Positions 29,223 through 48,846 of a stretch of 64,000 nt of DNA are shown here, piece after piece; the stretch's first letter is position 1; each line of letters begins with the position of its first letter. Under the pieces are notes generated by a model. The model was not told the origin of the DNA, ran no database searches, and worked only from the letters and a program-made list of their open reading frames with translations. This DNA is from Caldisericota bacterium (GTDB lineage Bacteria > Caldisericota > JANLFM01). The DNA lies in assembly GCA_024655965.1 (NCBI GenBank), contig JANLFL010000001.1, positions 22,049 through 86,048 of the forward strand. The letters are read 5' to 3'. The position numbers and the translations under genes were made by a program.

Positions 29223-29231
29223 ATCCTCCTC

Positions 29232-33638: not shown

Positions 33639-34504
33639 CCCTCCAGTTTGGAAAAGAAGGAATCCATTTTTACCCGGTTAAGGTTGAATCCAAGCTCCTC
33701 CTTGGGAATTCCCAGGGCGAGCCCCAGAACCTGGGGGAGAAAAACCACCGGAAGATCAAGCGCTTCTCCCAGGGCTTTTTCCACCTTCTTCTGGTTCTGC
33801 TCGAACATGATGTCGCAAAAAGGGCAAATCAGGACCATGGCGTCAGAACCGGACTTCTTCGCCTCTTTCAAGGTCAGCCCGGCCATGCTCAGTGAAGTTT
33901 CCTCCTTGAAGCCGAGGACCGCCCCGCCGCAACAGGGATTTGCCTCCATCAGCACCTGGGCTCCGGTGGATTTCAAAAGTTCCCCCAGGGTATCCGGAAA
34001 CTCGGGATTATCGAATCCCTGGTAAATCCTGGAGGGACGGGCAAAATGACATCCAGTGTAAGGGAAGAGTTTCAAGGATTTTAGGTTTCGGGTAATTTTT
34101 TCCTTAATCTTTTCCTTGAACTCATCAAAGAGGAAACGAGCGGAGTGGCGCACCTCCACCGAGCCTGAGTAATTGTGGCCAATCTCCTTTAGAAGGGGTT
34201 GAAATTTCTCCCTGGTTCCCGGGTCCTCCTTCCAGAGAAAATTTGCTTCCGTTAGGTTTTCCGTGCAGGCATTACAAAGCGTGACAAGGTCCTGAATCCC
34301 CCTCTCCTCAGCGAGAGCGAGGTTGGTTAAGGCCATCAAGATTCCCGATTCCTCCTTGACGCTTTTTAAAGGAAAACCGCAGCAGAAGAATTCGGGGACA
34401 TCAATAATTTGGATGCCTAATTCCTGGGCAACCCTGCGAAACGCCTGTTCATAATTGATCGCCCGAACCGGGACCGTACAACCTAAAAAGAGTCCAATCC
34501 TCAT
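33635..34504 (-). CDS. hdrB: heterodisulfide reductase subunit B (two CCG domains)
   Basis: N-terminal LFLGCTVP and CCG motifs FFCCGFP and NPCCGGA. ATGA overlaps on both sides. Confidence 0.85.
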   Translation of the reverse strand: MRIGLFLGCTVPVRAINYEQAFRRVAQELGIQIIDVPEFFCCGFPLKSVKEESGILMALTNLALAEERGIQDLVTLCNACTENLTEANFLWKEDPGTREKFQPLLKEIGHNYSGSVEVRHSARFLFDEFKEKIKEKITRNLKSLKLFPYTGCHFARPSRIYQGFDNPEFPDTLGELLKSTGAQVLMEANPCCGGAVLGFKEETSLSMAGLTLKEAKKSGSDAMVLICPFCDIMFEQNQKKVEKALGEALDLPVVFLPQVLGLALGIPKEELGFNLNRVKMDSFFSKLEG

Positions 34505-35004
34505 TTTTCTCCCTTAAGGTTTAAAAGTTCAGCCACATCGAGGACTTTTAAGGCAAGCTCTTTCATCTCGGTTAGGGTTGGCACTCCCTGCTTTGCCCTC
34601 TTTTTATTCTCAAAATCCCCTATTTCATAAAGCCTGCCGTGAGCCTTTAACAGTTCAAGCTGGGCTTCGAGGCCCGGGGGAATTACCCCCTCTTTCACCG
34701 CAATGTTCTTCAAGGCAGTCATTAAATCGGTGATTCTCACGTCCTGTGGGCAGCGCTCAGAGCAAAGGTAACAGGCGGAACAGAGCCAGATAAAGGGCGA
34801 TTTCAGGACTTCTTCCTTTGCCCCGATGAGGGTAAGGCGAACGATCCTCCGGGGATTAAACTCCTCATCGACCACATGAACGGGGCAACTAAGAGTGCAG
34901 GTGGCGCAGGAAAAACAGCGAAATAACTTTTCCCCGCCTTTCTCCTTAATTACTTGATACTTGAATTTTAAATCCAGGTTTTTTTCAGTTAAGGTTTCTT
35001 CCAT
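34501..35004 (-). CDS. hdrC: heterodisulfide reductase subunit C (4Fe-4S dicluster)
   Basis: Motifs CFSCATCTLSCP and CSACYLCSERCP. Confidence 0.8.
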   Translation of the reverse strand: MEETLTEKNLDLKFKYQVIKEKGGEKLFRCFSCATCTLSCPVHVVDEEFNPRRIVRLTLIGAKEEVLKSPFIWLCSACYLCSERCPQDVRITDLMTALKNIAVKEGVIPPGLEAQLELLKAHGRLYEIGDFENKKRAKQGVPTLTEMKELALKVLDVAELLNLKGEK

Positions 35005-35019
35005 GATCCTCCTAACTTT

Positions 35020-36477
35020 TTAGGAGCGCGAAACCTCCTCAATTGTTTTTTGAAGAACTTTTTCCAAAAGTTCCGGGGGAATTGTTTTGATAAAGGATTC
35101 CTTGATTAAAAGTTCGGTCAAGTTCCGTGAGTAATCAATGTCCTCCTTAGCTTTGCGATAAGCCTCCTCCCTGGTCATCTGGACCCTGGAAACCCCATCT
35201 TTTACAGCTTGCTGAGCGACATCCGCCGCTTCATTGGGAAAAACACCCGGCTCCTCCATGGTTGCGATAATGTTATCCGGATTAATGCCCCTCTTTTCCG
35301 CAAAATCCGCAAGGGATTTTGCCGCGGCAATCGCCATGGCGTCAGTCACCTTCCGGGCCCTGACTAAAAGTGCGCCTTTAAGAATCCCCGGAAACCCGAG
35401 GGAATTATTGATCTGGTTGGGAAAGTCTCCCCTACCCGTTCCCACGATGTAGGCTCCGGCTTCCTTCGCCTCGTAGGGATAAATTTCGGGAACGGGGTTT
35501 GCGCAGACGAAAACGATGGACTTGGGAGCCATTAGTTTTATCCATTCAGGCTTTATCACTCCTGGCCCTGGCGTGGAGACTGAAATCAAGACATCCGCTC
35601 CCTTCATTGCCTCTTCCATGGTCTTGACCCCTTCAGGGTTGGTCTTCATACAAATTTCCCATTTGCGGTAGAAACGGGGATCGGCTTCCACATCCTTCCT
35701 TCTTTTATGAAGAGCCCCTCTGGAATCGAACATGATGCTCTTTTCCGGATCCGCTCCCGCGGCAACATTCAGACGCAGGCAGGTAGTGTTTGCAGCCCCC
35801 GCACCGAAATAGACAATTTTGACTTCCGAGAGCTTCTTGCCCACGATCTTCAAAGCATTGAGAAGCCCGGCCAGAGTAACGCAGGCGGTCCCCTGCTGGT
35901 CATCGTGCCAGACAGGAATATCGCATTCTTCCCTTAACACATCCAGGACTCGATAGCAGTTTGGCTGGCTGATGTCCTCAAGGTTAACTGCTCCAAAAGA
36001 AGGCTGGATTCTCTTCACCAGGTCGATTATTATTTCCGGGTCGTTTTCGCCCTTCTGGTTCCGGGAGTCAATGCAGAGAGCAACGGCGTCGATCCCTCCT
36101 AAATACTTCATGAGGAAAGCCTTCCCCTCCATCACCCCCAAACCACCGGGAGGGGTAACATCTCCGTCTCCCAGGACACGGGTCGAGTCGCTGACTACGG
36201 CGACAAGATTCCCCCTGTTGGAAAGTTCAAAGGACCTCTCATTATCGTCCCGGATAGTTGTGGAGATCTTGGAAACCCCCGGGGTGTACCAAACGTTAAA
36301 CCAGTTAAAACCGAAGACCCCGGCCTTCGGGATGGTTTGCATTTTTCCCCCGTAAAAGCGATGCCCCTCCAAAGCGAGGGTCTTGTAAAAAATGGTTTTT
36401 GCCTTAGCTACTTGAGCAGGGGTAAAGCTCTCGGGAAAACACTCCTCCAAATTGCTCAAATCCGATTTGAGTTTCAT
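35020..36477 (-). CDS. NAD(P)-dependent malic enzyme
   Basis: Motifs VVSDSTRVLGDGD, NLEDISQPNC and FGAGAAN. I choose ATG 36477 (aaggagag RBS, no overlap) over the upstream extension to 36519. Confidence 0.85.
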   Translation of the reverse strand: MKLKSDLSNLEECFPESFTPAQVAKAKTIFYKTLALEGHRFYGGKMQTIPKAGVFGFNWFNVWYTPGVSKISTTIRDDNERSFELSNRGNLVAVVSDSTRVLGDGDVTPPGGLGVMEGKAFLMKYLGGIDAVALCIDSRNQKGENDPEIIIDLVKRIQPSFGAVNLEDISQPNCYRVLDVLREECDIPVWHDDQQGTACVTLAGLLNALKIVGKKLSEVKIVYFGAGAANTTCLRLNVAAGADPEKSIMFDSRGALHKRRKDVEADPRFYRKWEICMKTNPEGVKTMEEAMKGADVLISVSTPGPGVIKPEWIKLMAPKSIVFVCANPVPEIYPYEAKEAGAYIVGTGRGDFPNQINNSLGFPGILKGALLVRARKVTDAMAIAAAKSLADFAEKRGINPDNIIATMEEPGVFPNEAADVAQQAVKDGVSRVQMTREEAYRKAKEDIDYSRNLTELLIKESFIKTIPPELLEKVLQKTIEEVSRS

Positions 36478-36490
36478 CTCCCTCTCCTTT

Positions 36491-38167
36491 CTAAAGTCCC
36501 GCTGGGGCAAAAGGATCAAAAGCCGTCCTGTGCCTCTTTAAGGCTTCCAGGTTCCGATATTCGGGAAGGAGCAATGGGGAATAACCCTTTTTTTCGATCC
36601 CCTCCCTTTCCAGCTCCTTCTCAAAATCCCAAACGTGGTCCAGGTTCAAACGACCTTTGATTTCCGTCTCCCTGGCAATCCTCGCTGCTTCAATTCCAGC
36701 TCGCCGTCCGAAGACGTTGTAGTCGAGAACCGAGTTCCCCATCAAGCGGTTCCGCCCGTGGACACCGCCGGATACTTCCCCGGCCGCGAGAAGGTTGGGT
36801 ACGCTGGAATGGCAGTTCTCATCGATCTCCACTCCCCCGTTCTGGTAGTGAAGAGTGGGGTAAACAAGCATGGGAAGCTCACGGATGTCTATCCCAAAGC
36901 GCCTGTACTGTCTGAGCATGGCGGGGAAAGCCCTTTCGATAGTGCCCGGCCCGTTGAGAATCTCAATCAGAGGTGAATCCAGCCAGATTCCATATTGTCC
37001 GTCTGGGGTACGGACTCCCAGACCCTTTTTGCATTCCTGAATGTACTCGGAAGCTTCCACATCTCGGGGTTCCATGGGGAAAACGAAGAGCTCTCCCTTG
37101 GCGTTAACCGGTTGACCGCCCATTGCCCGAATTTTTTCCGTGATCAGGAACCCGTGAATTTGGGGAGGGTATATTGCCCCAGTTGGATGGAATTGAACCG
37201 AGTCCATGTGAAGAAGCCTGGCACCTGCCCGGTAAGCCATCACCACTCCATCCATGGTGGCTCCGTAATGATTGGTAGTTGGGAAACCCCGGATATGGAT
37301 GCGACCGAACCCCCCGGTCGCCAGGATCACCACCTTTGCTTGAACCACGAAAAACTCGCCGGTCTCCATGTCGAAAAGGATGGCCCCCGCAACCTTTCCT
37401 TCTTCATCCTTGATCAGCTCAACCGCGGGGAGAAACTCCAAAACGGTAATTTGATCGGGATGATTGCGGACTTCGTCCCTCAGGACACGCATGATCTCCG
37501 CTCCAGTGTAGTCCCTGCAAGACAGCATCCGCCTTCTTGAAGCTCCCCCTCCGGACTGGGTCTGAAAGTGACCATCGGGAAGCTTGTCCCAGATAACCCC
37601 TAACTCCTCGAGAAACTTTACAATATAGGGAGCCTCGGTGGTCATGATCTTCAATAACTCGGGTTTGTTGTCGAAGTGACCCCCTCCGATGGCATCGAGG
37701 TAGTGGATGAGAGGGGAATCCCCGGGGTTAACTGAAGCCTGCATCCCTCCCTGGGACATCATGGAATTTGCATCCCCCAGGCGGAGTTTTGTGGAAAGGA
37801 TAACCTTTGCCCCCTCCTTTGCCGCCCAGAGGGCAGCCTGGCAACCGGCACCCCCTCCTCCAATCACCAAGACGTCGGTTTGATAATCCACTGGCTCAAG
37901 TTTAAAGTCCCGAGGGAGCCGGGAAGGCCTCTCCAAAATATCGACCACTTCGGAGGTGAGCTCCTCCCCTCTATTTGGCCCGACCCGAATTGGTTTTCGG
38001 GCGTCCGGCTGATAATCTGGGTGGTTCTCCCTTAAAACTTTTTCCCGGGCTTCGGCAGAAAGGGGAACAAGGAATTTTTGCAAACCTTCCCTGGCCATTT
38101 CCGCCCTTCGAGGCCTTGTGGCCTCCACCATCTTAATCGACTCGAACATATTATCAGGGTAGCCCAT
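36491..38167 (-). CDS. fumarate reductase / succinate dehydrogenase flavoprotein-family subunit (TfrA/SdhA-like, soluble type)
   Basis: Motifs VLVIGGGGAGCQAALWAA, QFHPTG and AAGEVSGGVHGRNRLMGNS. No adjacent membrane-anchor genes. Confidence 0.8.
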   Translation of the reverse strand: MGYPDNMFESIKMVEATRPRRAEMAREGLQKFLVPLSAEAREKVLRENHPDYQPDARKPIRVGPNRGEELTSEVVDILERPSRLPRDFKLEPVDYQTDVLVIGGGGAGCQAALWAAKEGAKVILSTKLRLGDANSMMSQGGMQASVNPGDSPLIHYLDAIGGGHFDNKPELLKIMTTEAPYIVKFLEELGVIWDKLPDGHFQTQSGGGASRRRMLSCRDYTGAEIMRVLRDEVRNHPDQITVLEFLPAVELIKDEEGKVAGAILFDMETGEFFVVQAKVVILATGGFGRIHIRGFPTTNHYGATMDGVVMAYRAGARLLHMDSVQFHPTGAIYPPQIHGFLITEKIRAMGGQPVNAKGELFVFPMEPRDVEASEYIQECKKGLGVRTPDGQYGIWLDSPLIEILNGPGTIERAFPAMLRQYRRFGIDIRELPMLVYPTLHYQNGGVEIDENCHSSVPNLLAAGEVSGGVHGRNRLMGNSVLDYNVFGRRAGIEAARIARETEIKGRLNLDHVWDFEKELEREGIEKKGYSPLLLPEYRNLEALKRHRTAFDPFAPAGL

Positions 38168-38177
38168 TCTTACCTCC

Positions 38178-38864
38178 TCAAGTGATCTGGAAGTTGATTT
38201 CCCTGGAGAAATAACGGTTCTTGAGCTCTTCCTTGCTCAATGACATTAGTTCTTTATACCCTTCCTCATATTTTCCTGAAGAAATGTCCTTCAGCCTCTG
38301 CTCGAGGAGGGCGCTCTTTTTGGTGAGGAACTTCCCGTAGATCCTCCGAGCAAGGAGGGCAATGTTGAATTGGGTAATCTCCGCAGGGCACCTTGCGCTG
38401 CAAAGCCCGCACATGATGCAATCAAAGGAGAGGTTTGCAACTTGCTCAAAATCCCCCCTGATTGCCGCCTGGACGAAATCCATTACCTGGAGTTCCTGAG
38501 GGCAGATCTTTGTGCAGGTGTTGCAGGAAAGGCAACGATATAGCTCGGGATAATGGCGAACGAAAACTTCCGGGTCAGGTTTCAGCTCCTCGATGTTGTA
38601 AATGGCCTTCGGGGCGGGGACAAATGGAATCTGGACAATCTGCATCTCGGGCTGGACAACGGTCTGACAACCCAGGCCCCCTCTCAATTTATAATCCCCT
38701 TTCAAGCGGTAAAGGGAAGCGCATGCCCCACAGAAGCCCTCTTTGCATCCAACTCCCTTTTTTAACTTGAAGCCCAGGTACTCAAGGGCGGTAATGATCG
38801 TCGAACCTTCCGGGACAAGAAATTTCCTCGAGTAAAGGTAAATTGGGATCAGGTCATGGGCCAT
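38178..38864 (-). CDS. SdhB/FrdB-like iron-sulfur subunit (2Fe-2S plus 4Fe-4S motifs)
   Basis: I choose ATG 38864 (MAHDLIP...), which abuts the upstream stop. Motifs CKEGFCGACA, CLSCNTCTKICP and CIMCGLCSARCP. Confidence 0.75.
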   Translation of the reverse strand: MAHDLIPIYLYSRKFLVPEGSTIITALEYLGFKLKKGVGCKEGFCGACASLYRLKGDYKLRGGLGCQTVVQPEMQIVQIPFVPAPKAIYNIEELKPDPEVFVRHYPELYRCLSCNTCTKICPQELQVMDFVQAAIRGDFEQVANLSFDCIMCGLCSARCPAEITQFNIALLARRIYGKFLTKKSALLEQRLKDISSGKYEEGYKELMSLSKEELKNRYFSREINFQIT

Positions 38865-38865
38865 A

Positions 38866-39771
38866 CTAAATTCCCCCCTTCTCTTTTTCAAAAAATCCCG
38901 CGAGCACCGGCTGAGGAGCCACGAAGTGCTCGTCGGTAAAACCATTTCCTTTTCCCAGAGCAATGGAAAGAAGCTCCGAATAATAAACTGCGGGGATGAA
39001 TTTGTGATCTGAATGGTTCTCCTTCGCTTCCTTTTGACGATAATCAAGGTTGAAGGCGCATAAAGGACAAGCGGTTATGACAATATCCGCCCCTCCCATT
39101 GAAGCTCCCTTGAGAATGTCGTAGACCAGATCGGAAACTAACCCCGTCTCTGTGACCGTCTGATAACTCCCGCAACAACGCATCCTCCTGGGGTTGGATG
39201 CGACTTCCGCACCTAATGACTCCACCAGGTCTTCCAAGATCGAGGGGTTCTCGGGGTCATCGATGGAAACATCTTTTGGTCTTAAAAGATTGCACCCGTA
39301 ATAAGGGGAAACCTTCAGTCCCTTCAGAGGTTTCTTGACCTTCTCTTTTATTTTTTCGAAGGAGATTTCCCTTAGGAGTTGAAGGGCGTGAATTATTTCC
39401 ACTTTTCCGAGGTATGGCTGGGCTTCAAGGTATAAGAAATCGTTAACCTTTTTCAAATCCTCGGGATTCCCCTTAAGGCGGGCGTTTGCCCTTTTCAAAA
39501 CGTTGAAGCACATGGCGCAGGAAACAACCAGGCGGGGGTCGTCGACCTCCCCCTTCTCCACAACTTCCTGGGTCCGAATCAGATTGGTAATTGGGGCCAC
39601 CTGCCTGAGGAGGTCATCCGAAACCAGGGAATAAACAGCTCCGCAGCAATTCCATCTGGGAAGTTCGACAAGGCTAACCCCGAGCTCTTCAAAAACCGCC
39701 CTGGTGGAGGCGTCGAAGTCCCGGGCTTTGGTTTTAAGGGTACACCCTGGATAATAAGGCATCCTGATCAT
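38866..39771 (-). CDS. HdrB-like / TfrB-C-terminal-like CCG-domain protein
   Basis: N-terminal YYPGCTLK and CCG motifs WNCCGAV and MRCCGSY. Confidence 0.8.
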   Translation of the reverse strand: MIRMPYYPGCTLKTKARDFDASTRAVFEELGVSLVELPRWNCCGAVYSLVSDDLLRQVAPITNLIRTQEVVEKGEVDDPRLVVSCAMCFNVLKRANARLKGNPEDLKKVNDFLYLEAQPYLGKVEIIHALQLLREISFEKIKEKVKKPLKGLKVSPYYGCNLLRPKDVSIDDPENPSILEDLVESLGAEVASNPRRMRCCGSYQTVTETGLVSDLVYDILKGASMGGADIVITACPLCAFNLDYRQKEAKENHSDHKFIPAVYYSELLSIALGKGNGFTDEHFVAPQPVLAGFFEKEKGGI

Positions 39772-39775
39772 CTCG

Positions 39776-40198
39776 TCACCCCGTGAACTTTCTCATAGCG
39801 GCCACAAGAGCAATTTGAGGGAGGATCTTCGCCTCTTCTTCCCCAATCTTTGAAAGGTCGAGGTAATCGATGGCCGCGCGAAGCTTTAACTGCCTCAGGG
39901 CTTCCGCCACCTTGGAGGGATCGATCCCCCGGGGACACCTGACAGAACATGTGTAACAGGAAGCGCAAATCCAGAATGTCTTGAAATTCAGGACCTCCTC
40001 CTCCCCCAATTGAACCATCCTCATCATCAAAGAGGGGGTCTGATCCATTTCTCCGACAAGGGGACAGCTTCCCGAACAGGTTCCGCATTGTTCGCAGAGG
40101 TTTATCGTCTCTCCGCTCAACTCCTCCACCTTTTTGGAAAATTCCCTGTTCTTGGGGCCTAAAAGGATCCTTTTAATTCGAAGAAAACCCTGCTTCAT
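39776..40198 (-). CDS. HdrC-like 4Fe-4S dicluster protein
   Basis: Motifs CEQCGTCSGSCP and CASCYTCSVRCP. 4-nt overlap with the upstream gene. Confidence 0.75.
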   Translation of the reverse strand: MKQGFLRIKRILLGPKNREFSKKVEELSGETINLCEQCGTCSGSCPLVGEMDQTPSLMMRMVQLGEEEVLNFKTFWICASCYTCSVRCPRGIDPSKVAEALRQLKLRAAIDYLDLSKIGEEEAKILPQIALVAAMRKFTG

Positions 40199-43100
40199 TC
40201 TCTCGCTCCCTGGGCCCTGGTCCAGATGTTCTGGGCCCTCTCCCTTATTCTTTCCCGCACTTCAGGGGGAATCTGGGGGACCTCCCGTTTCACAAATTTC
40301 ACCAGGGAGGCTACATATTTGAAGAAATCCGTAAGCAGAGAGGTCAAAAGTTCCGCCGATTTTAACCTCTCGGGATCAACCCCTTCATCCTTTAGAATCT
40401 GCTGCACAATCTTCACGTTCTCTCTTATAGCCTCGTTAGAACCAGGGAAGGGGGAAGCACGGCTATCGCATTCCCCTATGAAAATACCGTCAGCACCATT
40501 TGCGAAGGCTTCAAGTAAAAGAGCAGGGGTTACCCTGGCACCGGAGGGTACCCTGATGATTCTGGTTTCAACCGGGTAAGAGATTCGCGAGGTTCCCAGG
40601 TTATCCGCCAGCCGGTAAGTGCAAACTGAGTCAGCAAAAACCAGGACCCGGGAGTCGTCGGGTTTTTTCTCCTTAAGAGCCTCTTTTATCTGGGCTCTCA
40701 TTTCCGCATTGGTGTAGTAATGAAGGTCGAGGGCTTCTTGAGGACAGTGGGCAAGGCAGATTCCGCAACCCTTGCAAAGGGCTTCGTTAATTTTTATCTT
40801 CTCCCCTTCCCTGGAAATCGCCTCAACAGGACATGAGGGGAGGCAAAGGCCGCATCCGTCGCAGAGCTCGGAATGGAGAAAAGCCGTGATTGGTTCGATC
40901 TCGTAGTATCCCTTATTCATCAGGCGAATTGCCCTTGAGGCCGCCGCGGAAGCCTGAGCAACCGTATCCGGAATGTCCTTCGGTCCCTGGGCACAACCGG
41001 CAATGAAAATCCCGTCAATCAGGGTGTCGACAGGGCGGAACTTGGGATGGGCTTCCTGGAGGAAGCCATCAGGGCTCCTTGCCAGTTTGAGCATTTCGGA
41101 AATCCTGTCGGAGTCATTTGAAGGAACGAGGCCTGTGGACAGGACCACGGTATCGAATTCCCCCGAGATGAGGCTCCTCGTTAAGGTATCCTCCGCAGAA
41201 AGAATCAGGGTTCCGTTTTCAGGATTCCTCTGGATTTCCGCTACCCTTCCCCTGATGTATTTAATTCCCGATTTCTGGGCTCTCTTATAGTATTCCTCAA
41301 ATCCCTTCCCGTAAGCCCGGAGGTCGGTATAAAAAATGAAAATCTCCCGGGAGGGGTCCAGACGCTTCAAAAGCTGGGCAAGTTTGGTGGCGTACATGCA
41401 GCAAATTCTTGAGCAGTTCTCCCTTCCAATCTGCTCGTCCCTCGAGCCCACGCACTGGATGAAGGCAACCCGGTTACCTATGGCTCTCAGGGGAGGACCT
41501 GAAGATCCGGTGGAAATTATCCTTTCCAGTTCTAAAGCGGTGAGGATATTGGGAGAGTTCCCGTACTGGTAGACTGGTTTCAGCATGGGGTTGAAGGTCT
41601 CAAATCCCGTGGCCACGATGATCGTGTCCGCCTGGATCTCCTCAATTCTCTCGGTCTCCTCAAAATTAATGGCCTTCGGCTCGCAGGCCCTGACGCATTC
41701 CCGGCACTCGGAACATCCCCCGCAGTTCAGGCACCTTTCCGCTTCCCCCTTTACCGCTTCAGGGGACAACCCCAGGTTAACCTCCGATGAGTCAGAAACC
41801 AGGCTTTCGGGGATGGAAATTCTGGGCTTTGCCCGGGAGGATGGCTCAACTTTGGAGATGTCCGGCTCAATCGGGGAAGAATATGGGCCCTCAAATTCAC
41901 GGCCAACCCGGAGGTCCTCAAAGTTCAAATACCGATCGATGGAGATGGAAGCTTTTTTTCCGTGCCCCATTGCCTCGATGAAGGTAGAAGGTCCAAGGAC
42001 GGCATCCCCTCCGGCAAAAACTCCGGGAAGGGAAGTCTCCAGGGTGAGGGGGTCAGCTTTGATCAGCCCATCTTGATCGGACAAATTGAAGCCGTTTTCC
42101 GGGGGGAGTTCCTGCCCCACGGCAACGATCACGGTCTGGAATTCCTCGAGGTAGGTCTGCCCGGGGATGGGGATTGGTCTCCTCCTGCCTGTAGAATCCG
42201 GCTCCCCCAGCTCCATTTTTTGTAAAGTTACCAGAAGTCCGGAATCGCTTTTTTCAATTCTCAAGGGGGTCTCAAGGAAGCGGAATCCCACTCCCTCCAA
42301 CTGCGCTTCTTCAATTTCCTCCTCATTCGCCGGCATTTCCTTTCGGGTTCGGCGGTAGATGATCTCAACTTTTTCCGCCCCAAAGCGAATAAGGGTTCTT
42401 GCAGCGTCAATAGCGGCATTCCCTCCCCCGATGACCGCTGCCTTCCCCTTAATTCCCTCAACCTTGCCCGTGTTCGCTTCCTTCAAAAATTCCAGGGCTC
42501 CGAAAACCCCCGGAAGGTCTTCCCCAGGGATTCCCATTTTCCTGGAAGCCCAGGTTCCCACCGCAAGGAAGACCGCGTTGTATTCCTCGAGCAACCGGGA
42601 TAAGCCTTCCTTTCCTTTAATCTCCATCCCGGTGAAAAATTTGACTCCGATATCTGAAAGGACACCGAGCTCCCTGTCGAGGACTGCGCGGGGAAGCCGA
42701 TAAGGAGGGATTCCGTAACGGAGCATTCCCCCGATCTCCAACATCTTTTCAAAGACTGAAACCTCGTAACCCAGCATCCTTAAATTAAAGGCAGCCATCA
42801 GTCCTGCCGGCCCTGAGCCAACTATGGCAACTTTTTTTCCGTTGGAGGAAGGAGGGGAAAGCTCCCATTTTTTCCCTTGCTTTTCCGCGTAATCGTAGAT
42901 GAACCTCTTTAAAAGGTCTATGGCCAGTGGTTGGTCGACCCTTTCCCTACGGCAGGCAGTTTCGCAGGGATGAGTGCAGATTCTCCCGGTTATCCCCGGG
43001 AAGGGATTCGCTTCCCTGACCAATGCCAGGGCTTCCTCGTATTTCCCTTTCTTTATTAACTGAATATATCCCTGAGCGTTCACGTGGATCGGGCAGGCAG

Positions 43101-43968
43101 CCCGACAGGGAGAGGTTCCGATCTTGGTAATGAGGTACTTGTGGGGAACCGCCACATCGTTGTAAATGTGGATGGCTTTTCTCTGGGAAAGCCCGAGGTT
43201 GAACTGATTGGGCATCTCCACCGGACATTCCTTGGCGCAGTCCCCGCAGGCGGTGCACTTTTCCAGGTCGACGAAACGGGGCTTCCTCCGCACCTTGACC
43301 TTGAAGTTCCCCAGATACCCGCTAACCGATTCCACCTCGGAATAAGTGTAAAGGTGAATGTTCGGGTGCTCAGCGACATCCGCAAGTTTGGGTCCGATGA
43401 TGCAGGTTGCGCAGTCCTCGGTGGGGAAGGTTTTGGAGAGCATGGCCATCTTTCCCCCGATTGAGGCCTCCTTTTCCACCAGGAAGACCTCGAAGCCTGA
43501 ATCCCCGAGGTCGAGGGAAGCCTGAATTCCGGCAATTCCCCCTCCGATCACCAGGACCCTCTTCCCAATGGGCATCCTCTTCCTTTCGAGGGGGACATGA
43601 AGGGCGCAACGGGCAATGGCCATTCGAACCAAATCCTCAGCTTTCTTTGTGGCTTGCTGCTTGCTTGTGTGGCACCAGGAACAATGTTCACGGATATTTG
43701 CCATGTCGAAAAGATAAGGATTCAATTCCGCTTTTTCCAGGGTTTTCATGAAGGTCTTTTCGTGGAAAAGGGGAGAACAGGAAGCGACCACCACACGGTT
43801 CAGGGAATGTTCAGAGGCATCCTTCAAGATGCATTTTTGGCCGTCCTCAGAGCACATGTGCTCAAGGTCCCTGGCAACAACCACCCCGGGCTGCTCCGAT
43901 GCCACCTGGAGGAGCCTTTTCACATCGACGACATCGGAAATGTTTCCCCCGCAGTGGCAGATGTACAC
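40195..43968 (-). CDS. hdrA: HdrA / NfnB(GltD)-like / degenerate MvhD-like fusion flavoprotein (HdrL-like). True start probably upstream of the GTG at 43968.
   Basis: Motifs YICHCGGNIS, VIGGGIAGIQASLDLG, TFPTEDCATC and CTACGDCAKECP. Inserted module at aa ~280-683 (SPCRAACPIH, CTHPCETAC, GSGPAGL, GGGNAAID). Then CVGSRD...CSRICC, CDGCGLCLPSCP / CKGCGICLAHCP, and a C-terminal MvhD-like tail. Confidence 0.8.
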   Translation of the reverse strand: MYICHCGGNISDVVDVKRLLQVASEQPGVVVARDLEHMCSEDGQKCILKDASEHSLNRVVVASCSPLFHEKTFMKTLEKAELNPYLFDMANIREHCSWCHTSKQQATKKAEDLVRMAIARCALHVPLERKRMPIGKRVLVIGGGIAGIQASLDLGDSGFEVFLVEKEASIGGKMAMLSKTFPTEDCATCIIGPKLADVAEHPNIHLYTYSEVESVSGYLGNFKVKVRRKPRFVDLEKCTACGDCAKECPVEMPNQFNLGLSQRKAIHIYNDVAVPHKYLITKIGTSPCRAACPIHVNAQGYIQLIKKGKYEEALALVREANPFPGITGRICTHPCETACRRERVDQPLAIDLLKRFIYDYAEKQGKKWELSPPSSNGKKVAIVGSGPAGLMAAFNLRMLGYEVSVFEKMLEIGGMLRYGIPPYRLPRAVLDRELGVLSDIGVKFFTGMEIKGKEGLSRLLEEYNAVFLAVGTWASRKMGIPGEDLPGVFGALEFLKEANTGKVEGIKGKAAVIGGGNAAIDAARTLIRFGAEKVEIIYRRTRKEMPANEEEIEEAQLEGVGFRFLETPLRIEKSDSGLLVTLQKMELGEPDSTGRRRPIPIPGQTYLEEFQTVIVAVGQELPPENGFNLSDQDGLIKADPLTLETSLPGVFAGGDAVLGPSTFIEAMGHGKKASISIDRYLNFEDLRVGREFEGPYSSPIEPDISKVEPSSRAKPRISIPESLVSDSSEVNLGLSPEAVKGEAERCLNCGGCSECRECVRACEPKAINFEETERIEEIQADTIIVATGFETFNPMLKPVYQYGNSPNILTALELERIISTGSSGPPLRAIGNRVAFIQCVGSRDEQIGRENCSRICCMYATKLAQLLKRLDPSREIFIFYTDLRAYGKGFEEYYKRAQKSGIKYIRGRVAEIQRNPENGTLILSAEDTLTRSLISGEFDTVVLSTGLVPSNDSDRISEMLKLARSPDGFLQEAHPKFRPVDTLIDGIFIAGCAQGPKDIPDTVAQASAAASRAIRLMNKGYYEIEPITAFLHSELCDGCGLCLPSCPVEAISREGEKIKINEALCKGCGICLAHCPQEALDLHYYTNAEMRAQIKEALKEKKPDDSRVLVFADSVCTYRLADNLGTSRISYPVETRIIRVPSGARVTPALLLEAFANGADGIFIGECDSRASPFPGSNEAIRENVKIVQQILKDEGVDPERLKSAELLTSLLTDFFKYVASLVKFVKREVPQIPPEVRERIRERAQNIWTRAQGARE

Positions 43969-43988
43969 TCCAAGTCTGGGTTTATCTT

Positions 43989-44546
43989 CTATAGGAGGCA
44001 GTATTGTCTCACCCCTTCCACATAAAGGTCATTTCCCTGGGGGTCAATTGCCACAATCAATGGGAGGTCTTCCACCTCCAGTTCCCGGATCGCTTCCGCC
44101 CCCAGTTCCTCGTAAGCCACGGTCCGGGAGGACTTGACCGCTTTGGCCAGGAGCACTCCCACCCCTCCAGTTGCCGCAAGGTAAACCGCGCCATTCCTTT
44201 TTATGGCTTCCACGACCTCGGGGCTTCTCTGACCTTTTCCGATCATTGCTTTTAGCCCCAAATCGAGGAGTATTGGGGAATAAGGGTCCATTCGCTCACT
44301 GGTTGTGGGTCCCGCGGAACCAATTACCTGTCCAGGCTTGGGAGGGGTTGGCCCCACATAATAAATCGCCTGCCCTTGGAGTTCAATGGGCAGTTCCTTT
44401 CCCTCTTTTATCAATTGGGCAAGCCTCCGATGGGCGGCATCCCTCGCAGTGTAAATTTTTCCGGAAAGGAGAACCCGGTCCCCGATCTTCAGGTCCTTTA
44501 AATCCTCCTTCCTGAGAGGGGTCTTCAATCTGATTTCTTGAGGCAT
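43989..44546 (-). CDS. fumB: class I (Fe-S) fumarate hydratase, beta subunit
   Basis: 185 aa. Motifs LSGKIYTARDAAHRRL and GPTTSERMD. Confidence 0.8.
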   Translation of the reverse strand: MPQEIRLKTPLRKEDLKDLKIGDRVLLSGKIYTARDAAHRRLAQLIKEGKELPIELQGQAIYYVGPTPPKPGQVIGSAGPTTSERMDPYSPILLDLGLKAMIGKGQRSPEVVEAIKRNGAVYLAATGGVGVLLAKAVKSSRTVAYEELGAEAIRELEVEDLPLIVAIDPQGNDLYVEGVRQYCLL

Positions 44547-44556
44547 CTTTTCCCCC

Positions 44557-45402
44557 TTAAACAGTTACTGTTTTATGACGGGCGGCATGGCATTGAATGT
44601 TGACAGCCACCGGCATACTGGCAATATGGCAGGGGAGGGTGAGGATCTTTACCCCTAAGGCGGTAACCCTTCCCCCCAATCCCATGGGCCCGATTCCCAA
44701 GCGATTAATTCGGTGGAGAAGTTCATCCTCAACCTTGGCCCATTTTTCCTCAGGATGCTTATCCCTCAAGTCCCTCATCAGGGCCTTCTTGGCAAGGAGA
44801 GCGCAGGATTCGAAATTCCCCCCGATCCCCACTCCCACAATAATCGGAGGGCAAGGGTTTCCCCCGGACCTGCGAACCCGGTCAACAACGAAATCCATAA
44901 CGCCTTCCAGGCCCTGAGCGGGGGTTAACATCTTCACCTCGCTCATGTTCTCCGAGCCTCCACCCTTGGGGGCAACGGTGATCTTGATCCTGTCACCAGG
45001 GACGATATCCAGGTGGATGATGGCCGGGGTGTTGTCCCCGGTATTCTTCCTCTCAATTACCGGATCGTCCACCATGGACTTCCGGAGGTATCCGTCTTTG
45101 TAACCCTGCCTGACACCTTCATTAATTGCCGCATAAAGATCTCCTCCTTTGAGGTGAAGTTCCTGGCCGAGTTCCACGAAAACCACCGCAACCCCGGTAT
45201 CCTGGCATGCGGGCATCTCCTCCTGGGAAGCCATCCGGTGGTTGGTTAAAATCTGCCTGAGGATTTCTTTACCAACAGGGGATTCTTCCAGGGTAAGGGC
45301 TTCTTCAAGCTTTTCCAGGACATCCTCTCCGATGAAATAGTTTGCCTCAATGCAAAGCTTTTTCACCTGAGGAATCAATTCCGAAACATCAAGCTCCCTC
45401 AA
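44557..45402 (-). CDS. fumA: class I (Fe-S) fumarate hydratase, alpha subunit
   Basis: 281 aa. Motifs PACQDTGVAVVFVELG, KGGGSEN and GNPCPPIIVGVGIGG. Confidence 0.8.
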   Translation of the reverse strand: MRELDVSELIPQVKKLCIEANYFIGEDVLEKLEEALTLEESPVGKEILRQILTNHRMASQEEMPACQDTGVAVVFVELGQELHLKGGDLYAAINEGVRQGYKDGYLRKSMVDDPVIERKNTGDNTPAIIHLDIVPGDRIKITVAPKGGGSENMSEVKMLTPAQGLEGVMDFVVDRVRRSGGNPCPPIIVGVGIGGNFESCALLAKKALMRDLRDKHPEEKWAKVEDELLHRINRLGIGPMGLGGRVTALGVKILTLPCHIASMPVAVNIQCHAARHKTVTV

Positions 45403-45420: not shown

Positions 45421-46485
45421 TCAATCTTTAAATCCCAGGGCCATGATGAGGTCTTCGGCGGTCACACCAGGCATTTCCTTTTCCCTCGATTCGATGAAAC
45501 TCTCCACCCTTGGAAGAAGCTCAAACTTTTCTCTTCTTGAGCCAATTAGGCTCTTCTCTAACTTTTCGGAAAGAGCAAGGCGAGGAATCAAGGTGAAATC
45601 CCCACTGATTGAAAGATCCTTAATCCTTCCTCCAATCGGTGGGCCTTCCACCTCCTGGACAGAACGGATTAAACCGCCCCGGGCTTTATGTTGACCGAAA
45701 ATCAAGTTTAGCCCTGATTTAATCTTCAATGAATCAACGACAGGCTTCCTTTTTCCGAAGAGGAACTCCGGTTTTTGCATTTCCCTCTCCAGGGCTTCCG
45801 CCCTTCTGAGGAAATCGGGAGGAAGTTCTCCCTTCTCAAGGGGTCCGAGGACCTTTTTGAACTCGGAGATCAGGACCTCCTCGACCTCCCTTCTGTCCGG
45901 AAGTTCCCCGAGTTCCTTTTTCATGGTGGTGAGGTTTTCCTCCAGGGTCTTGAAGACCTTATCCCTCCATTTCTCGTCCGGGATCTTTGCTACCTTTGAC
46001 ATGGTCCGATAATCGAAATCCATGAGCATGGATCCCACGAATACCATGCATTCGCCAATATCCGCCCCACCTTCGCCCCCGATCTTCTTCCCTTCGGGGG
46101 TAACGAGGTCGTTTATCTCCCGGAATCGGGCCTTGATCCCAAAGTGTTCGTGCGCCCGGCACGGTGGTTCAGAGAAAAGCTCATATGCCCCTTTTATGGT
46201 CTGGGGAAATTTCTTGTTCTTGCGGGAGTAAATCACCTGATAAAAAATTTGGTTCTCGTCGAGGTAGGTGGTCCCACCACCGACCTCCCTCCGGAAGAGA
46301 GGCAAACCGGAGTTCTTCAAATAATCGAGGTCCACTTCCTGGAAGGCATCCTGAAAATACCCAATGCTGATAATCGGTTTCTCGGGGGAGACGATAACCA
46401 GGGCTTCTGCCCCCTCTCGCGCAAGCTGGTGAAAGATGACCATCGAGAGGAGGCGGGGCATGCGATCAAGGCGGAAGAGATACAT
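45421..46485 (-). CDS. lplA: lipoate--protein ligase family protein (BPL/LPL catalytic domain)
   Basis: Motifs RREVGGGTTYLD and GKKIGGEG (lysine motif). 354 aa. Confidence 0.7.
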   Translation of the reverse strand: MYLFRLDRMPRLLSMVIFHQLAREGAEALVIVSPEKPIISIGYFQDAFQEVDLDYLKNSGLPLFRREVGGGTTYLDENQIFYQVIYSRKNKKFPQTIKGAYELFSEPPCRAHEHFGIKARFREINDLVTPEGKKIGGEGGADIGECMVFVGSMLMDFDYRTMSKVAKIPDEKWRDKVFKTLEENLTTMKKELGELPDRREVEEVLISEFKKVLGPLEKGELPPDFLRRAEALEREMQKPEFLFGKRKPVVDSLKIKSGLNLIFGQHKARGGLIRSVQEVEGPPIGGRIKDLSISGDFTLIPRLALSEKLEKSLIGSRREKFELLPRVESFIESREKEMPGVTAEDLIMALGFKD

Positions 46486-46494
46486 TTCCTTGCC

Positions 46495-46911
46495 CTATTT
46501 GGCTTTCTTCCGGATTTCCTCTTCCATCCACTTCAAAGCGGCTTCCCCTTTGAAGAGATTGTCCAGTTCCGAAGGGTCAGAAGCTTTGAGCTTGAAAAGC
46601 CAGCCCTCACCATAGGGGTCGAGGTTGGCGAGCGAGGGAGTGTCAACAACTTGAGAATTGACCTCCAGAATCGTCCCGCTTAAGGGGGAGTAGATCTTTC
46701 CCACCCATTTCCCGGTCTCCACGGTTCCAACCACGTCGTCCTGGGAATACTCATCGCCCTCAGAGGGAAGTTCAAGATAGGAGATCTCTCCGGCGAGTTT
46801 CTGAAAAAAATCGGTGACGCCGACCGTTGCGACATCACCTTCCATCCTTACCCAGAAGTGCTCCTTGTGGTACCAGAGGTCTTCTGGCAGCAGGTAACCC
46901 CCTACTTCCAT
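46495..46911 (-). CDS. gcvH: GcvH-like lipoyl-carrier protein
   Basis: Motifs HFWVRMEGDVATVGVTDF and VETGKWVGKIYSPLSGTILEVN (lipoyl-Lys context). ATG 46911 has a cgaaggagga RBS; the extension to 46977 is rejected. Confidence 0.8.
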   Translation of the reverse strand: MEVGGYLLPEDLWYHKEHFWVRMEGDVATVGVTDFFQKLAGEISYLELPSEGDEYSQDDVVGTVETGKWVGKIYSPLSGTILEVNSQVVDTPSLANLDPYGEGWLFKLKASDPSELDNLFKGEAALKWMEEEIRKKAK

Positions 46912-46976
46912 TGCGGTTCCTCCTTCGAAATTGATCCTCAAATTTGAAGGGCACGTAAGAATCCACGATTGAAACA

Positions 46977-46986
46977 ATTATAACCA
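46977..46986 (-). promoter_or_regulatory. candidate extended -10 promoter for the gcvH-to-flxA operon
   Basis: The minus strand reads TGGTTATAAT, about 65 nt upstream of the gcvH ATG, inside the only large AT-rich gap (46912-47118). Confidence 0.35.
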
Positions 46987-47118: not shown

Positions 47119-47523
47119 CTATTTTTTGTGGGAGCAGATTTCCGTGAGCACAGAATTCGTGGACCGGGGGTGAAGGAAGAAAATCCAAGTATCATGGGAG
47201 CCTTCCCTGGGCTCCTGGTCGATAAATTCAAACCCCAGCGTTTTATATTCCCTCATCTGCCCCTCGATATCCTCGGTCTCAAAAGCAATGTGATGAAGAC
47301 CCTCGCCCCTCTTCTCCAGGAATTTCCCAATTGCACTGTCAGGGGAGGTGGGCTCGAGGAGCTCAACATGCACATCCCCAATCTCGAACATGGCAACTTT
47401 CACTTTTTGAGAAGGGACCTCCTCAATTCCCAGAAATTTCATTCCCAGGTTTTTAAAAACCGGAATGCTTTTTTCCAGGGAGTTAACAGCAATTCCAACG
47501 TGCTCGATTTTTTTAAGCATCAT
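47119..47523 (-). CDS. mce: methylmalonyl-CoA epimerase (VOC family)
   Basis: 134 aa. Motifs IEHVGIAV, VELLEP and GLHHIAF. Confidence 0.85.
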   Translation of the reverse strand: MMLKKIEHVGIAVNSLEKSIPVFKNLGMKFLGIEEVPSQKVKVAMFEIGDVHVELLEPTSPDSAIGKFLEKRGEGLHHIAFETEDIEGQMREYKTLGFEFIDQEPREGSHDTWIFFLHPRSTNSVLTEICSHKK

Positions 47524-48452: not shown

Positions 48453-48846
48453 CCTTCAAGGTTTTCTCGATGAAGGCGGTCACCTGATCGATGGTCGTTC
48501 CCGGAGGGAAGATCTCCCTGATTCCCCTGGATTTCAAATAAGGGATATCATCTGCGGGAATTACCCCTCCCCCGAAGACCACGATGTCCTCCGCCCCCTT
48601 CTCCTTTAAAAGCTCCACAACTTTGGGAAAAAGCTGGTTGTGGGCACCGGAAAGAAGGCTCAAACCGACAAATTGAACGTCCTCCTGGATTGCCGCCTTC
48701 ACGACATCCTCAGGTGTTTGCCGGATGCCCGTGTAAATTACCTCGAACCCTTCGTCCCTTAAAGCCTGGGCGATGTACTTTGCCCCCCTATCGTGACCGT
48801 CAAGTCCGACCTTGGCAATTAAAATCCGGATTTTTCCTTTCTCCAT
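48439..48846 (-). CDS. methylmalonyl-CoA mutase, B12-binding small subunit
   Basis: B12-binding DxHxxG context [13 protein letters not shown]. 135 aa. Confidence 0.85.

Follow-up and report, generated by a model that had tools for sequence, protein, structure and literature searches.

A candidate Hdr-coupled, quinone-independent fumarate reductase encoded within a methylmalonyl-CoA pathway array of Caldisericota

Fumarate reductases that are linked to heterodisulfide reductase (Hdr) and Flx proteins have been proposed in several bacterial lineages. The "succinate operon" of Pseudoclostridium thermosuccinogenes combines fumarate hydratase, Flx-Hdr, and fumarate reductase genes, and in a study that drew on transcriptomics succinate formation was proposed to be coupled to the reduction of ferredoxin (PMC7282089). 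The reductive tricarboxylic acid (rTCA) clusters of Ca. Endoriftia and Thioflavicoccus have the order frdB-frdA-hdrC-hdrB-korDABC-hdrA-flxDCBA (PMC6315080, PMC11636981), and a complex that bifurcates electrons to 2-oxoglutarate:ferredoxin oxidoreductase (OGOR) and fumarate reductase has been proposed for tubeworm symbionts and Thioflavicoccus (PMC6315080); this rTCA flx-hdr-frd cluster has co-expression support (PMC11636981), and the same cluster has been noted in Bipolaricaulia (bioRxiv 10.1101/2023.11.26.568696). On the HdrA side, the closest described proteins are HdrA9-11 of ANME-1, which carry an NfnB-like insert of about 470-500 residues in the inserted ferredoxin domain (PMC9012536). 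Here we analyze a 64,000-nt stretch of the Caldisericota contig JANLFL010000001.1 (assembly GCA_024655965.1, positions 22,049 to 86,048 of the forward strand), referred to throughout as the window, in which five consecutive genes encode homologs of HdrA, HdrC, and HdrB (HdrA2, HdrC2, and HdrB2), an iron-sulfur protein (the FeS subunit), and an SdhA/FrdA-family flavoprotein. We propose, with belief and doubt about equally balanced, that these genes specify a single cytoplasmic, quinone-independent, bifurcating fumarate reductase complex that runs toward fumarate reduction. In the literature that we searched, nothing was found on this cluster in Caldisericota, and a survey of Cloacimonadota draws no link between Hdr and fumarate reductase (FRD).

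The five genes are co-directional on the - strand, and the open reading frame (ORF) coordinates give junctions of -4, +4, +1, and +10 nt in the order from HdrA2 to the flavoprotein (Table 1). An earlier interpretation made from the letters of the window alone, hereafter the sequence-only reading, had described five consecutive genes with junctions of -4 to +10 nt, and much of what it described was borne out: Pfam and NCBIfam profiles recovered every domain it had named, including the NfnB-like insert of the 1257-aa HdrA (which it had placed at nt 41920-43131) and the C-terminal ferredoxin and MvhD domains of that protein, and a motif scan recovered the two CxxCxxCxxxCP motifs of HdrC as well as WNCCGAV and MRCCGSY in HdrB. 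The same reading had seen no transmembrane helix in any subunit; in our analysis a simple hydropathy test agrees, with no 19-residue Kyte-Doolittle mean across the five proteins above 1.46, and no membrane helix is therefore expected. No membrane-anchor gene was found among the translations and Pfam matches of the surrounding array, so that the anchor and quinone site of complex II have no counterpart here, and no quinone or membrane respiratory genes were found elsewhere in the window, the remaining genes of which are housekeeping genes.

The flavoprotein matches FAD_binding_2 (PF00890, 245 bits) and has no match to Succ_DH_flav_C (PF02910) in the Pfam scan. It consists of an N-terminal extension of about 94 residues, which is family-specific, conserved, and confidently modelled, a core of flavin adenine dinucleotide (FAD) and capping domains, and a short C-terminus, with about 54 residues after the core versus 136-178 in TfrA- and SdhA-like relatives. 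No NCBIfam model reaches its curated cut-off on this protein; the best match is TfrA (NF004900) at 341.6 bits, under a cut-off of 718, followed by SdhA/FrdA models at 294 and 275 bits and NadB models at 200-255 bits. Among solved structures the best sequence matches are SdhA of M. smegmatis Sdh1, SdhA/FrdA of E. coli, and NadB, and an AlphaFold2 (AF2) model (pLDDT 79.8, pTM 0.83) has E. coli FrdA 1kf6_A (E 2.6e-29) and M. smegmatis Sdh1 SdhA 7d6v_A as its top Foldseek matches. The residues of the dicarboxylate site, His327 (in QFHPTG), Thr343/Glu344, Arg368, His440, and Arg474, are all kept and are invariant among 36 aligned family members, with Arg368 at the position of the proton-donor Arg in structure alignments; together with the domain and fold matches, they sustain the earlier placement of the protein in the SdhA/FrdA family. 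The sequence-only reading had also judged by eye that the His carrying covalent FAD is missing, and alignments to 7d6v_A and E. coli SdhA 1nek_A agree: Asn134 stands in its place, the same Asn occurs in all 36 aligned members (60-88% identity), and a covalent 8-alpha-N3-histidyl link to FAD is thus not expected. When 1.84 billion representatives were searched exhaustively, full-length relatives with the N-terminal extension scored 338-637 bits and the next group, which is without it, at most 273 bits. The nearest named relative is TfrA of methanogens (Methanospirillum/Methanoregulaceae; 40% identity, 237 bits), which does not have the extension and which, in the alignment, likewise is without the covalent-FAD His. 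Overall, the sequence comparisons support a reading of the flavoprotein and its FeS partner as a soluble fumarate-reductase-type enzyme with non-covalent FAD. As a separate observation, the N-terminally extended family includes a 542-aa protein from Prochlorococcus sp. MIT 1201 (P0405, WP_413360575.1; representative P0246, 42% identical), a surprising host for an anaerobe-type soluble fumarate reductase.

The FeS subunit has an N-terminal plant-type [2Fe-2S] motif (C-x4-C-x2-C...C) and two CxxCxxCxxxCP motifs, and 12 of its cysteines are conserved (C40, C45, C48, C66, C111, C114, C117, C121, C149, C152, C155, and C159); its homologs carry Fer2/Fer2_4 Pfam matches. Pfam finds no CCG domain in it, and the TfrB model reaches 29.8 bits. 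The description of this protein as SdhB-like in the sequence-only reading holds for the layout of the cofactors and, judged from the sequence, for nothing beyond it: SdhB is matched only weakly (E 1.4e-5), and a fold search recovered only the 2Fe-2S domain. In an NCBI-derived metagenome protein of 727 aa (P0243) the two partners are naturally fused, with the FeS part N-terminal and the family-specific extension of the flavoprotein included.

HdrB2 matches PF02754 (CCG) in two stretches, and its 10 cysteines form two complete CCG sets of five, which would hold two putative non-cubane [4Fe-4S] clusters. It aligns with HdrB structures from end to end (130 bits to the best chain, 8rvu_b, and 122 bits to the 5ODC chain), and with NCBIfam models it scores 157 bits for HdrB versus a cut-off of 345 and 152 bits for SdhE, the anchor of methylmenaquinol:fumarate reductase (MFR), versus a cut-off of 500. 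HdrC2 has Fer4_17/Fer4_8 matches, motifs for two [4Fe-4S] clusters, and an NCBIfam HdrC score of 72.8 bits versus a cut-off of 160. Both proteins are more similar to the HdrB and HdrC proteins of FRD-linked clusters in other phyla (mean identities of 47% and 51%, respectively) than to HdrB1 and HdrC1, the equivalent proteins of a second Hdr set about 4 kb away (31% and 33%). By these identities HdrB2 and HdrC2 are orthologs of the FRD-linked genes and not of their neighbors, which indicates that a dedicated Hdr lineage travels with the fumarate reductase pair.

HdrA2 aligns with the methanogen HdrA 5odc_A in two stretches that span the whole chain (704 bits), and it has the architecture of HdrA proteins: an N-terminal [4Fe-4S] domain, a thioredoxin-reductase-like FAD domain, and two ferredoxin domains, with four CxxCxxCxxxC motifs in addition to the N-terminal cluster region. 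Its Pfam matches are Fer4_20 (PF14691) at residues 285-365, Pyr_redox_2 (PF07992) at 378-670, Fer4 at 1032-1080, and FlpD/MvhD at 1108-1225. The segment CCMYATK aligns with CCMYAMK (residues 403-409) of 5odc_A, such that the equivalent of Lys409, which contacts N5 of the FAD in M. thermolithotrophicus HdrA (PMC6405883), is kept. The NfnB/GltD-like insert falls between 5ODC residues 290 and 293, that is, within the inserted ferredoxin domain, and scores 300-400 bits against the NfnB-type chains 9n5u_A, 5jca_L, and 4ylf_B; no gene for an NfnA partner is adjacent to HdrA2. The NCBIfam HdrA model gives 922 bits versus a cut-off of 1100, and HdrA2, HdrB2, and HdrC2 all fall below the NCBIfam cut-offs that would make them equivalogs of CoB-CoM heterodisulfide reductase. 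A shorter start proposed by a gene caller (P0121, 1229 aa) was rejected, as the GTG-start protein aligns from residue 1 with the N-terminal cluster region of 5ODC HdrA. From its sequence, then, HdrA2 looks competent for bifurcation. HdrA-NfnB proteins of about 1470-1560 aa are widespread, and the additional MvhD fusion (1226-1257 aa) is present in only four close database clusters.

We mapped the proteins of the window onto 80 flavoprotein-encoding loci, each from a different GTDB species. The FeS gene adjoins the flavoprotein gene in all 78 loci that have upstream sequence, and HdrA and HdrB are encoded on the same strand within 10 kb upstream of the pair in 42 of the 48 loci whose upstream flank measures 9 kb or more, a linkage that is far beyond chance and that extends over at least six phyla, with metagenome-assembled genomes (MAGs) assigned to Caldisericota, WOR-3, Aminicenantes, Bacteroidales, and Anaerolineae. 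The contigs from Hydrothermota and Cloacimonadota are shorter, and on these HdrA lies directly upstream of the pair. Some of the labels themselves look unreliable: a locus assigned to Bathyarchaeia (L002, CAZJUU010000043.1) and several assigned to "Eubacteriales", "Clostridiales", or "Pseudomonadota" (e.g., L038, L055, and L076) encode flavoproteins that are 61-76% identical to that of the window, in layouts typical of Caldisericota or Aminicenantes.

The gene content beside the pair varies in an orderly way. In the Aminicenantes-type loci the order is HdrC-HdrB-[2-oxoacid:ferredoxin oxidoreductase alpha/beta/gamma]-HdrA-FlxD-FlxC-FlxB-FlxA-FeS-flavoprotein, with the oxidoreductase genes between hdrB and hdrA at positions 1154-3884 of L053 and equivalents in about 35 such loci. 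An NfnB-like insert in HdrA occurs in the window, in the contig L001 (JANLFM010000003), which is fully syntenic with the window and encodes a 92% identical flavoprotein, in L009 from Hydrothermota, and in L012, L017, and L048 from WOR-3. In a MAG of marine Gammaproteobacteria, the FeS and flavoprotein genes overlap at their junctions with each other and with a gene for a NuoF-like subunit (Complex1_51K), and this flavoprotein is 44% identical to that of the window; from its sequence, the unit (L081/L082) has the appearance of a simple NADH:fumarate reductase, soluble and assembled around the same core pair. Every type of cluster that we examined thus has an NAD(P)H-oxidizing module, be it FlxABCD, the NfnB-like insert, or a NuoF-like subunit, and as this donor module differs between loci, the pair may be regarded as a portable soluble fumarate reductase with exchangeable modules on the NAD(P)H side.

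In the mechanism that we propose, HdrA2 would take electron pairs from NAD(P)H at the NfnB/GltD-like insert, or else via the fused MvhD domain, and the HdrA FAD would split each pair, with one electron passing downhill to fumarate (+30 mV) and the other uphill to ferredoxin. The iron-sulfur clusters of HdrC2 and HdrB2 would constitute the high-potential branch of the HdrA2 flavin and would feed the FeS subunit, whose chain of one [2Fe-2S] and two [4Fe-4S] clusters would in turn supply the non-covalently bound FAD of the flavoprotein, where fumarate would be reduced. The net reaction would be approximately 2 NAD(P)H + fumarate + Fd(ox) -> 2 NAD(P)+ + succinate + Fd(red). With standard potentials of -320 mV for NAD, +30 mV for fumarate, and about -450 mV for ferredoxin, this reaction is calculated to yield about -43 kJ under standard conditions, and its reverse about +43 kJ. 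The complex would serve as the redox step of a succinate- and propionate-forming methylmalonyl-CoA (Wood-Werkman-type) fermentation, and part of the energy drop from NADH to fumarate would be saved as reduced ferredoxin. We infer that the subunits form a physical complex, that the wire through HdrB is direct and does not involve thiol chemistry, that the donor and the low-potential acceptor are those named above, and that the enzyme bifurcates and runs in the direction given. With respect to the direction, the covalent FAD link shifts the potential of the flavin upward by about 100 mV, and when it is missing, complex II variants reduce fumarate and cannot oxidize succinate (PMC5773532); since Asn is invariant at this site, we read the flavoprotein as a one-way fumarate reductase, and the array therefore most likely serves the formation of succinate and propionate. 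A role in fumarate metabolism is further supported by pathway context, namely the fumarase genes directly upstream and the transcarboxylase subunits and the probable mutase and epimerase encoded in the same array. The proposals published for clusters that look homologous (PMC7282089, PMC6315080, PMC11636981) were reached independently and point the same way.

Several observations weigh against this proposal. The insert is located in the proposed low-potential exit arm of methanogen HdrA (5ODC), and NAD(P)+ could therefore be an acceptor instead of NAD(P)H being the donor; MvhD, the usual input module, is also present in HdrA2. The insert is moreover not essential to the Hdr-FRD system, given that three loci of close Caldisericota relatives (L003, L005, and L011) encode HdrA2-MvhD proteins without it. 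Neither HdrA nor HdrB lies within 10 kb of the pair in five of the 48 loci (L007, L020, L030, L032, and L034), one of which, L034, has the pair among ribosomal-protein and tRNA-synthetase genes with no alternative donor nearby, and in the marine Gammaproteobacteria the pair is accompanied by the NuoF-like subunit alone, without Hdr; the pair thus does not strictly need Hdr. The AF2 model of the FeS subunit is of low confidence (pTM 0.45), its Foldseek matches being confined to the N-terminal 2Fe-2S beta-grasp domain. A thiol intermediate is possible as well, since HdrB2 keeps both complete CCG cysteine sets. Orthology to the genes of P. thermosuccinogenes (CDQ83_RS03320-25) and Endoriftia is inferred from gene order and not from their sequences, and a full-text literature search found no biochemical or structural study of any Hdr-coupled or bifurcating fumarate reductase, only genomic and transcriptomic proposals. 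The suggestion of the sequence-only reading that this is an Hdr-coupled fumarate reductase accordingly stands in part: the soluble, non-covalent-FAD type and the genetic tie to an apparently bifurcation-competent HdrABC are retained, and donation of electrons from NAD(P)H through the insert is uncertain in view of its low-potential location and the additional MvhD domain. Its belief that no such enzyme has been characterized is probably right, whereas the implied novelty of the concept is overtaken by the proposals already published for P. thermosuccinogenes (PMC7282089) and Endoriftia/Thioflavicoccus (PMC6315080, PMC11636981).

One may postulate alternative scenarios in which the coupling between these proteins is of another kind. 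HdrB2, with or without HdrC2, could form with the FeS subunit and the flavoprotein a split analog of TfrAB, a thiol:fumarate reductase that oxidizes a dithiol carrier to the disulfide. Candidates for the carrier would be the lipoyl group on the array's GcvH-like protein, a thiol of low molecular weight, and a protein of the DsrC type. HdrA2 or the FlxABCD-HdrA1B1C1 proteins of the second set would then use NAD(P)H to return the disulfide to the dithiol, with concomitant reduction of ferredoxin. CCG cysteine sets perform disulfide chemistry in methanogens, and both sets are kept in HdrB2; methanogen TfrB is a fusion of SdhB-like and CCG parts, and TfrA is the nearest named relative of the flavoprotein; the window has two complete Hdr sets; a GcvH-like lipoyl carrier and a lipoate ligase are encoded in the array, the former being conserved upstream of fumarase in four Caldisericota loci; and thiol coupling is among the options offered for Endoriftia (PMC6315080 Text S1). 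Nevertheless, most FRD-linked clusters have a single HdrB/HdrC pair, and a shuttle would need two CCG sites, one to oxidize and one to reduce the carrier; no DsrC-like gene was seen in the window, and the linkage to GcvH is limited to Caldisericota. The potential of lipoamide, about -290 mV, is also too negative for the high-potential acceptor in a bifurcation driven by NADH, and we consider thiol coupling unlikely, though with a real chance of being correct. A similarly small chance attaches to a plain, non-bifurcating soluble NAD(P)H:fumarate reductase, in which HdrA2, HdrC2, and HdrB2 would be merely a wire from the NfnB-like site and no ferredoxin would be reduced. In marine Gammaproteobacteria the same FeS-flavoprotein pair has a NuoF-like NADH module as its sole companion, and in some WOR-3 genomes it stands alone; the pair can thus work with simple donors. 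On the other hand, a simple wire would hardly account for an HdrA that is complete, with its Lys409 equivalent and its two ferredoxin domains, or for a dedicated, co-inherited HdrBC lineage, and by calculation some 68 kJ per fumarate would be dissipated.

Other scenarios retain the Hdr coupling or the pair and change the direction or the chemistry. HdrA2 may contain two bifurcation-type flavins, the HdrA FAD and an NfnB-like FAD in the low-potential arm, hard-wired to the fumarate reductase such that fumarate is coupled both to ferredoxin and to NAD(P)+/NAD(P)H chemistry; examples would be a fumarate-driven, Nfn-like transhydrogenation and, at the extreme, a reversible, quinone-free succinate/fumarate couple for syntrophic propionate oxidation. 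We regard this two-flavin arrangement as rather improbable. Full reversal, in which a quinone-free, confurcating succinate dehydrogenase catalyzes succinate + Fd(red) -> fumarate + 2 NAD(P)H for syntrophic propionate oxidation, had been entertained in the sequence-only reading and is now disfavored; we would assign it only a slight probability. The array apparently encodes the methylmalonyl-CoA route, the enzymes of which are the same in both directions, there is no membrane anchor, and Hdr-type enzymes are reversible in principle. Weighing more heavily are the replacement of the covalent-FAD His by Asn in 36 of 36 members, given that enzymes without the link cannot oxidize succinate (PMC5773532), the calculated cost of about +43 kJ under standard conditions with one reduced ferredoxin pair spent per succinate, and the occurrence of the same module elsewhere in reductive settings, that is, in rTCA clusters and in a succinate-producing Clostridium (PMC6315080, PMC7282089). 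Finally, the substrate of the flavoprotein could be a compound different from fumarate, for example L-aspartate (as in NadB), adenosine 5'-phosphosulfate (as in AprA), or another enoate. In favor of this, the family is uncharacterized, the flavoprotein stays below the curated cut-off of every NCBIfam model, and its scores with NadB models are 200-255 bits; against it, the scores with the TfrA and SdhA/FrdA models are better (342, 294, and 275 bits), all fumarate-site residues are invariant, and fumarase is adjacent in Caldisericota. The NadB assignment was rejected, as the position of Glu121, a residue diagnostic of L-aspartate oxidases, is occupied by Gly and the Fe-S partner is always present; NadB is not known to have an Fe-S partner. 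The AprAB assignment was rejected as well, with no AprA model among the best 25 NCBIfam matches listed and a 2Fe-2S domain in the partner. We consider another substrate very improbable.

The five genes belong to a co-directional array of about 29 kb on the - strand (approximately 25994-55033), which runs, from upstream to downstream, through biotin ligase, transcarboxylase, mutase, epimerase, GcvH/LplA, fumarase, the five genes, malic enzyme, and a second Hdr set (Table 1). The positions of the fumarase and malic-enzyme genes on either side of the five, already noted in the sequence-only reading, were confirmed with Pfam. Fumarase occupies the same position in four Caldisericota loci (L001, L003, L005, and L011), and the malic-enzyme-family gene, the likely start of which is an ATG at 36477 with a GGAG-rich site upstream, is syntenic in L001, L003, L005, L010, and L011. 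A scan for promoters and terminators gave signals that were not above chance and is uninformative on the limits of the operon. The second set (25994-35004) lies about 4 kb downstream and is a complete, paralogous FlxABCD-HdrABC with junctions of -23 to +15 nt; HdrA1 is 54% identical to HdrA2 over 882 residues (BLASTP), and its first copy has an NfnB-like insert and is without the N-terminal cluster domain, with a complete HdrA copy following.

Table 1 Features of the window and of related loci.
Feature	Position (nt)	Strand	Remarks
Biotin-ligase-like	54338-55033	-	Pfam
Carboxyltransferase 12S	52679-54235	-	Pfam
Biotin carrier (1.3S)	52056-52472	-	Pfam
Probable 5S transcarboxylase subunit	50551-52050	-	translation read by eye, no profile scan
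Probable methylmalonyl-CoA mutase	48856-50520	-	translation read by eye, no profile scan
Probable B12-binding subunit of mutase	48439-48846	-	translation read by eye, no profile scan
Probable MeaB-like GTPase	47520-48452	-	translation read by eye, no profile scan
Probable methylmalonyl-CoA epimerase	47119-47523	-	translation read by eye, no profile scan
GcvH-like	46495-46977	-	Pfam
LplA-like ligase	45421-46485	-	Pfam
FumA, class I fumarate hydratase alpha	44557-45402	-	upstream of the five genes; PF05681, 405 bits
FumB, class I fumarate hydratase beta	43989-44546	-	directly upstream of HdrA2; PF05683, 209 bits
HdrA2	40195-43968	-	1257 aa, GTG start
HdrA2, N-terminal and FAD part	43123-43968	-	aa 1-282; 5ODC alignment
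HdrA2, NfnB/GltD-like insert	41716-43122	-	aa 283-751; 469 aa
HdrA2, rest of core and C-terminal ferredoxin domain	40669-41715	-	aa 752-1100; 5ODC alignment
HdrA2, fused MvhD/FlxD	40288-40653	-	aa ~1106-1227; matches MvhD chains
HdrC2	39776-40198	-	140 aa
HdrB2	38866-39771	-	301 aa
FeS subunit	38178-38864	-	228 aa; ATG is residue 62 of listed ORF
Flavoprotein	36491-38167	-	558 aa
Flavoprotein, N-terminal extension	37886-38167	-	~94 aa
Flavoprotein, Asn134	37766-37768	-	in place of covalent-FAD His
Malic-enzyme-family protein	35020-36477	-	directly downstream of flavoprotein; PF03949 and PF00390
HdrC1	34501-35004	-	second Hdr set; Pfam
HdrB1	33635-34504	-	second Hdr set; Pfam
HdrA1	29232-33638	-	1468 aa, tandem HdrA with NfnB-like insert
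FlxD/MvhD	28770-29222	-	second Hdr set; Pfam
FlxC-like	27815-28783	-	second Hdr set; Pfam
FlxB-like	26820-27827	-	second Hdr set; Pfam
FlxA-like	25994-26842	-	second Hdr set; only FNR-like protein found
GcvH-like/LplA-like equivalents, L001	1192-2742		
GcvH-like/LplA-like equivalents, L003	3709-4122		
GcvH-like/LplA-like equivalents, L005	1680-2084		
GcvH-like/LplA-like equivalents, L011	2650-4122		
FeS (212 aa)-flavoprotein (545 aa)-NuoF-like (Complex1_51K, 418 aa), L081/L082	9366-12891		MAG GCA_018697835.1; overlapping junctions

Between the probable epimerase gene and fumarase, the array encodes a GcvH-like lipoyl carrier and an LplA-like ligase (45421-46977). The GcvH-like protein retains the lipoyl-lysine context "ETGKW", there are no further glycine-cleavage genes nearby, and in each of the four Caldisericota loci mentioned above a GcvH-like gene immediately precedes fumarase. 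Lipoate-binding proteins are encoded beside sulfur-oxidizing Hdr-like complexes, and the GcvH-like protein may act as a dithiol partner to HdrB1 or HdrB2. Elsewhere in the window, on the + strand (9446-15858 and 19551-20720), genes for HerA-like (DUF87), SbcC/Rad50-like, and NurA-domain proteins make up a HerA/NurA-type set for the processing of DNA ends, near a histone-deacetylase-family gene (11134-12045); this set is unconnected with the fumarate reductase operon.

If the proposed bifurcating complex is correct, many uncultured anaerobes (with MAG labels that include Caldisericota, WOR-3, Hydrothermota, Cloacimonadota, Aminicenantes, and Bacteroidales) would conserve the energy of fumarate reduction in the cytoplasm as reduced ferredoxin, and not by means of quinones and a membrane potential. 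Genome-based ATP yields for succinate and propionate fermentation and for reductive TCA carbon fixation would then change, and MAGs annotated with "SdhAB only" would be explained. The non-covalent FAD further argues against counting genes of this family as succinate dehydrogenase in reconstructions of syntrophic propionate oxidation. With its NAD(P)H module inside HdrA, the five-gene unit is a compact construct that makes a seven-year-old hypothesis easier to approach biochemically, and the operon in the window is a good candidate for a first biochemical test of the Hdr-coupled fumarate reductase class, its donor module being more compact than the FlxABCD version.

Among characterized enzymes, TfrAB of methanogens resembles the pair in the window in that it is cytoplasmic, has neither a membrane anchor nor the covalent-FAD His, and joins CCG clusters to an SdhB-like Fe-S chain. 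TfrB fuses the Fe-S and CCG parts, whereas in the window FeS and HdrB2 are separate genes and HdrC and HdrA are present in addition; TfrA has no N-terminal extension and a C-terminal domain of 136 aa, compared with about 54 aa in the window flavoprotein, and the coenzymes M and B (CoM and CoB) used by TfrAB would not be expected in a bacterium. The HdrABC-MvhAGD complex (5ODC) shares with the window full-length homologs of HdrA, HdrB, and HdrC, an MvhD module, the Lys409 equivalent, and the CCG cysteines. Unlike in that complex, MvhD is fused to HdrA in the window, the inserted ferredoxin domain is split by an NfnB-like domain of 469 aa, and there is no adjacent hydrogenase; the terminal acceptor, CoM-S-S-CoB in HdrABC-MvhAGD, is proposed to be fumarate here, reached via the extra subunits. 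HdrA2 has its insert in the same place as the HdrA-NfnB proteins of ANME-1 and, like them, has two candidate bifurcating flavins in one polypeptide, but it is bacterial, is also fused to MvhD, and has its link to a fumarate reductase pair and not to methane metabolism. The NfnAB transhydrogenase is represented by an NfnB-type domain (Fer4_20 and a pyridine-nucleotide FAD domain) in HdrA2 and not by an NfnA subunit. In type E succinate:quinone reductase (SQR) and the MFR of Campylobacter (SdhABE), a CCG-domain protein likewise partners an SdhAB-like pair, and the FeS subunit has a second [4Fe-4S] motif, as in type E, where classical SdhB has [3Fe-4S]. In contrast to type E SQR, the window has HdrC and HdrA, has no SdhF, and shows nothing that suggests association with quinones or the membrane; a type E assignment was rejected on the SdhE score (152 versus a cut-off of 500) and the presence of HdrA and HdrC.

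The closest counterparts are the published Flx-Hdr-FRD clusters, in which, as in the window, a two-subunit soluble FRD stands beside hdrA, hdrB, hdrC, and an NAD(P)H-oxidizing module; in the P. thermosuccinogenes operon fumarate hydratase is adjacent as well, and the logic of the proposals is the same, with electrons from NADH split between fumarate and ferredoxin (or OGOR). The Endoriftia cluster comprises the same gene families as the Aminicenantes-type loci, with an oxoacid oxidoreductase between hdrB and hdrA and the FeS-flavoprotein pair at the opposite end. The five-gene unit differs from the published clusters in having no FlxA, FlxB, or FlxC and an HdrA with an NfnB/GltD-like insert and a fused MvhD/FlxD domain, and from the rTCA versions in having no oxoacid:ferredoxin oxidoreductase genes; it is set in a methylmalonyl-CoA pathway array of Caldisericota, with a second complete Flx-Hdr set 4 kb downstream. 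An Flx-Hdr-coupled fumarate reductase is therefore already known as a proposal in other bacteria, and what is new here is the donor module, in which an NfnB-like insert and a fused MvhD take the place of FlxABCD, together with the phylum and the methylmalonyl-CoA array in which it is found.

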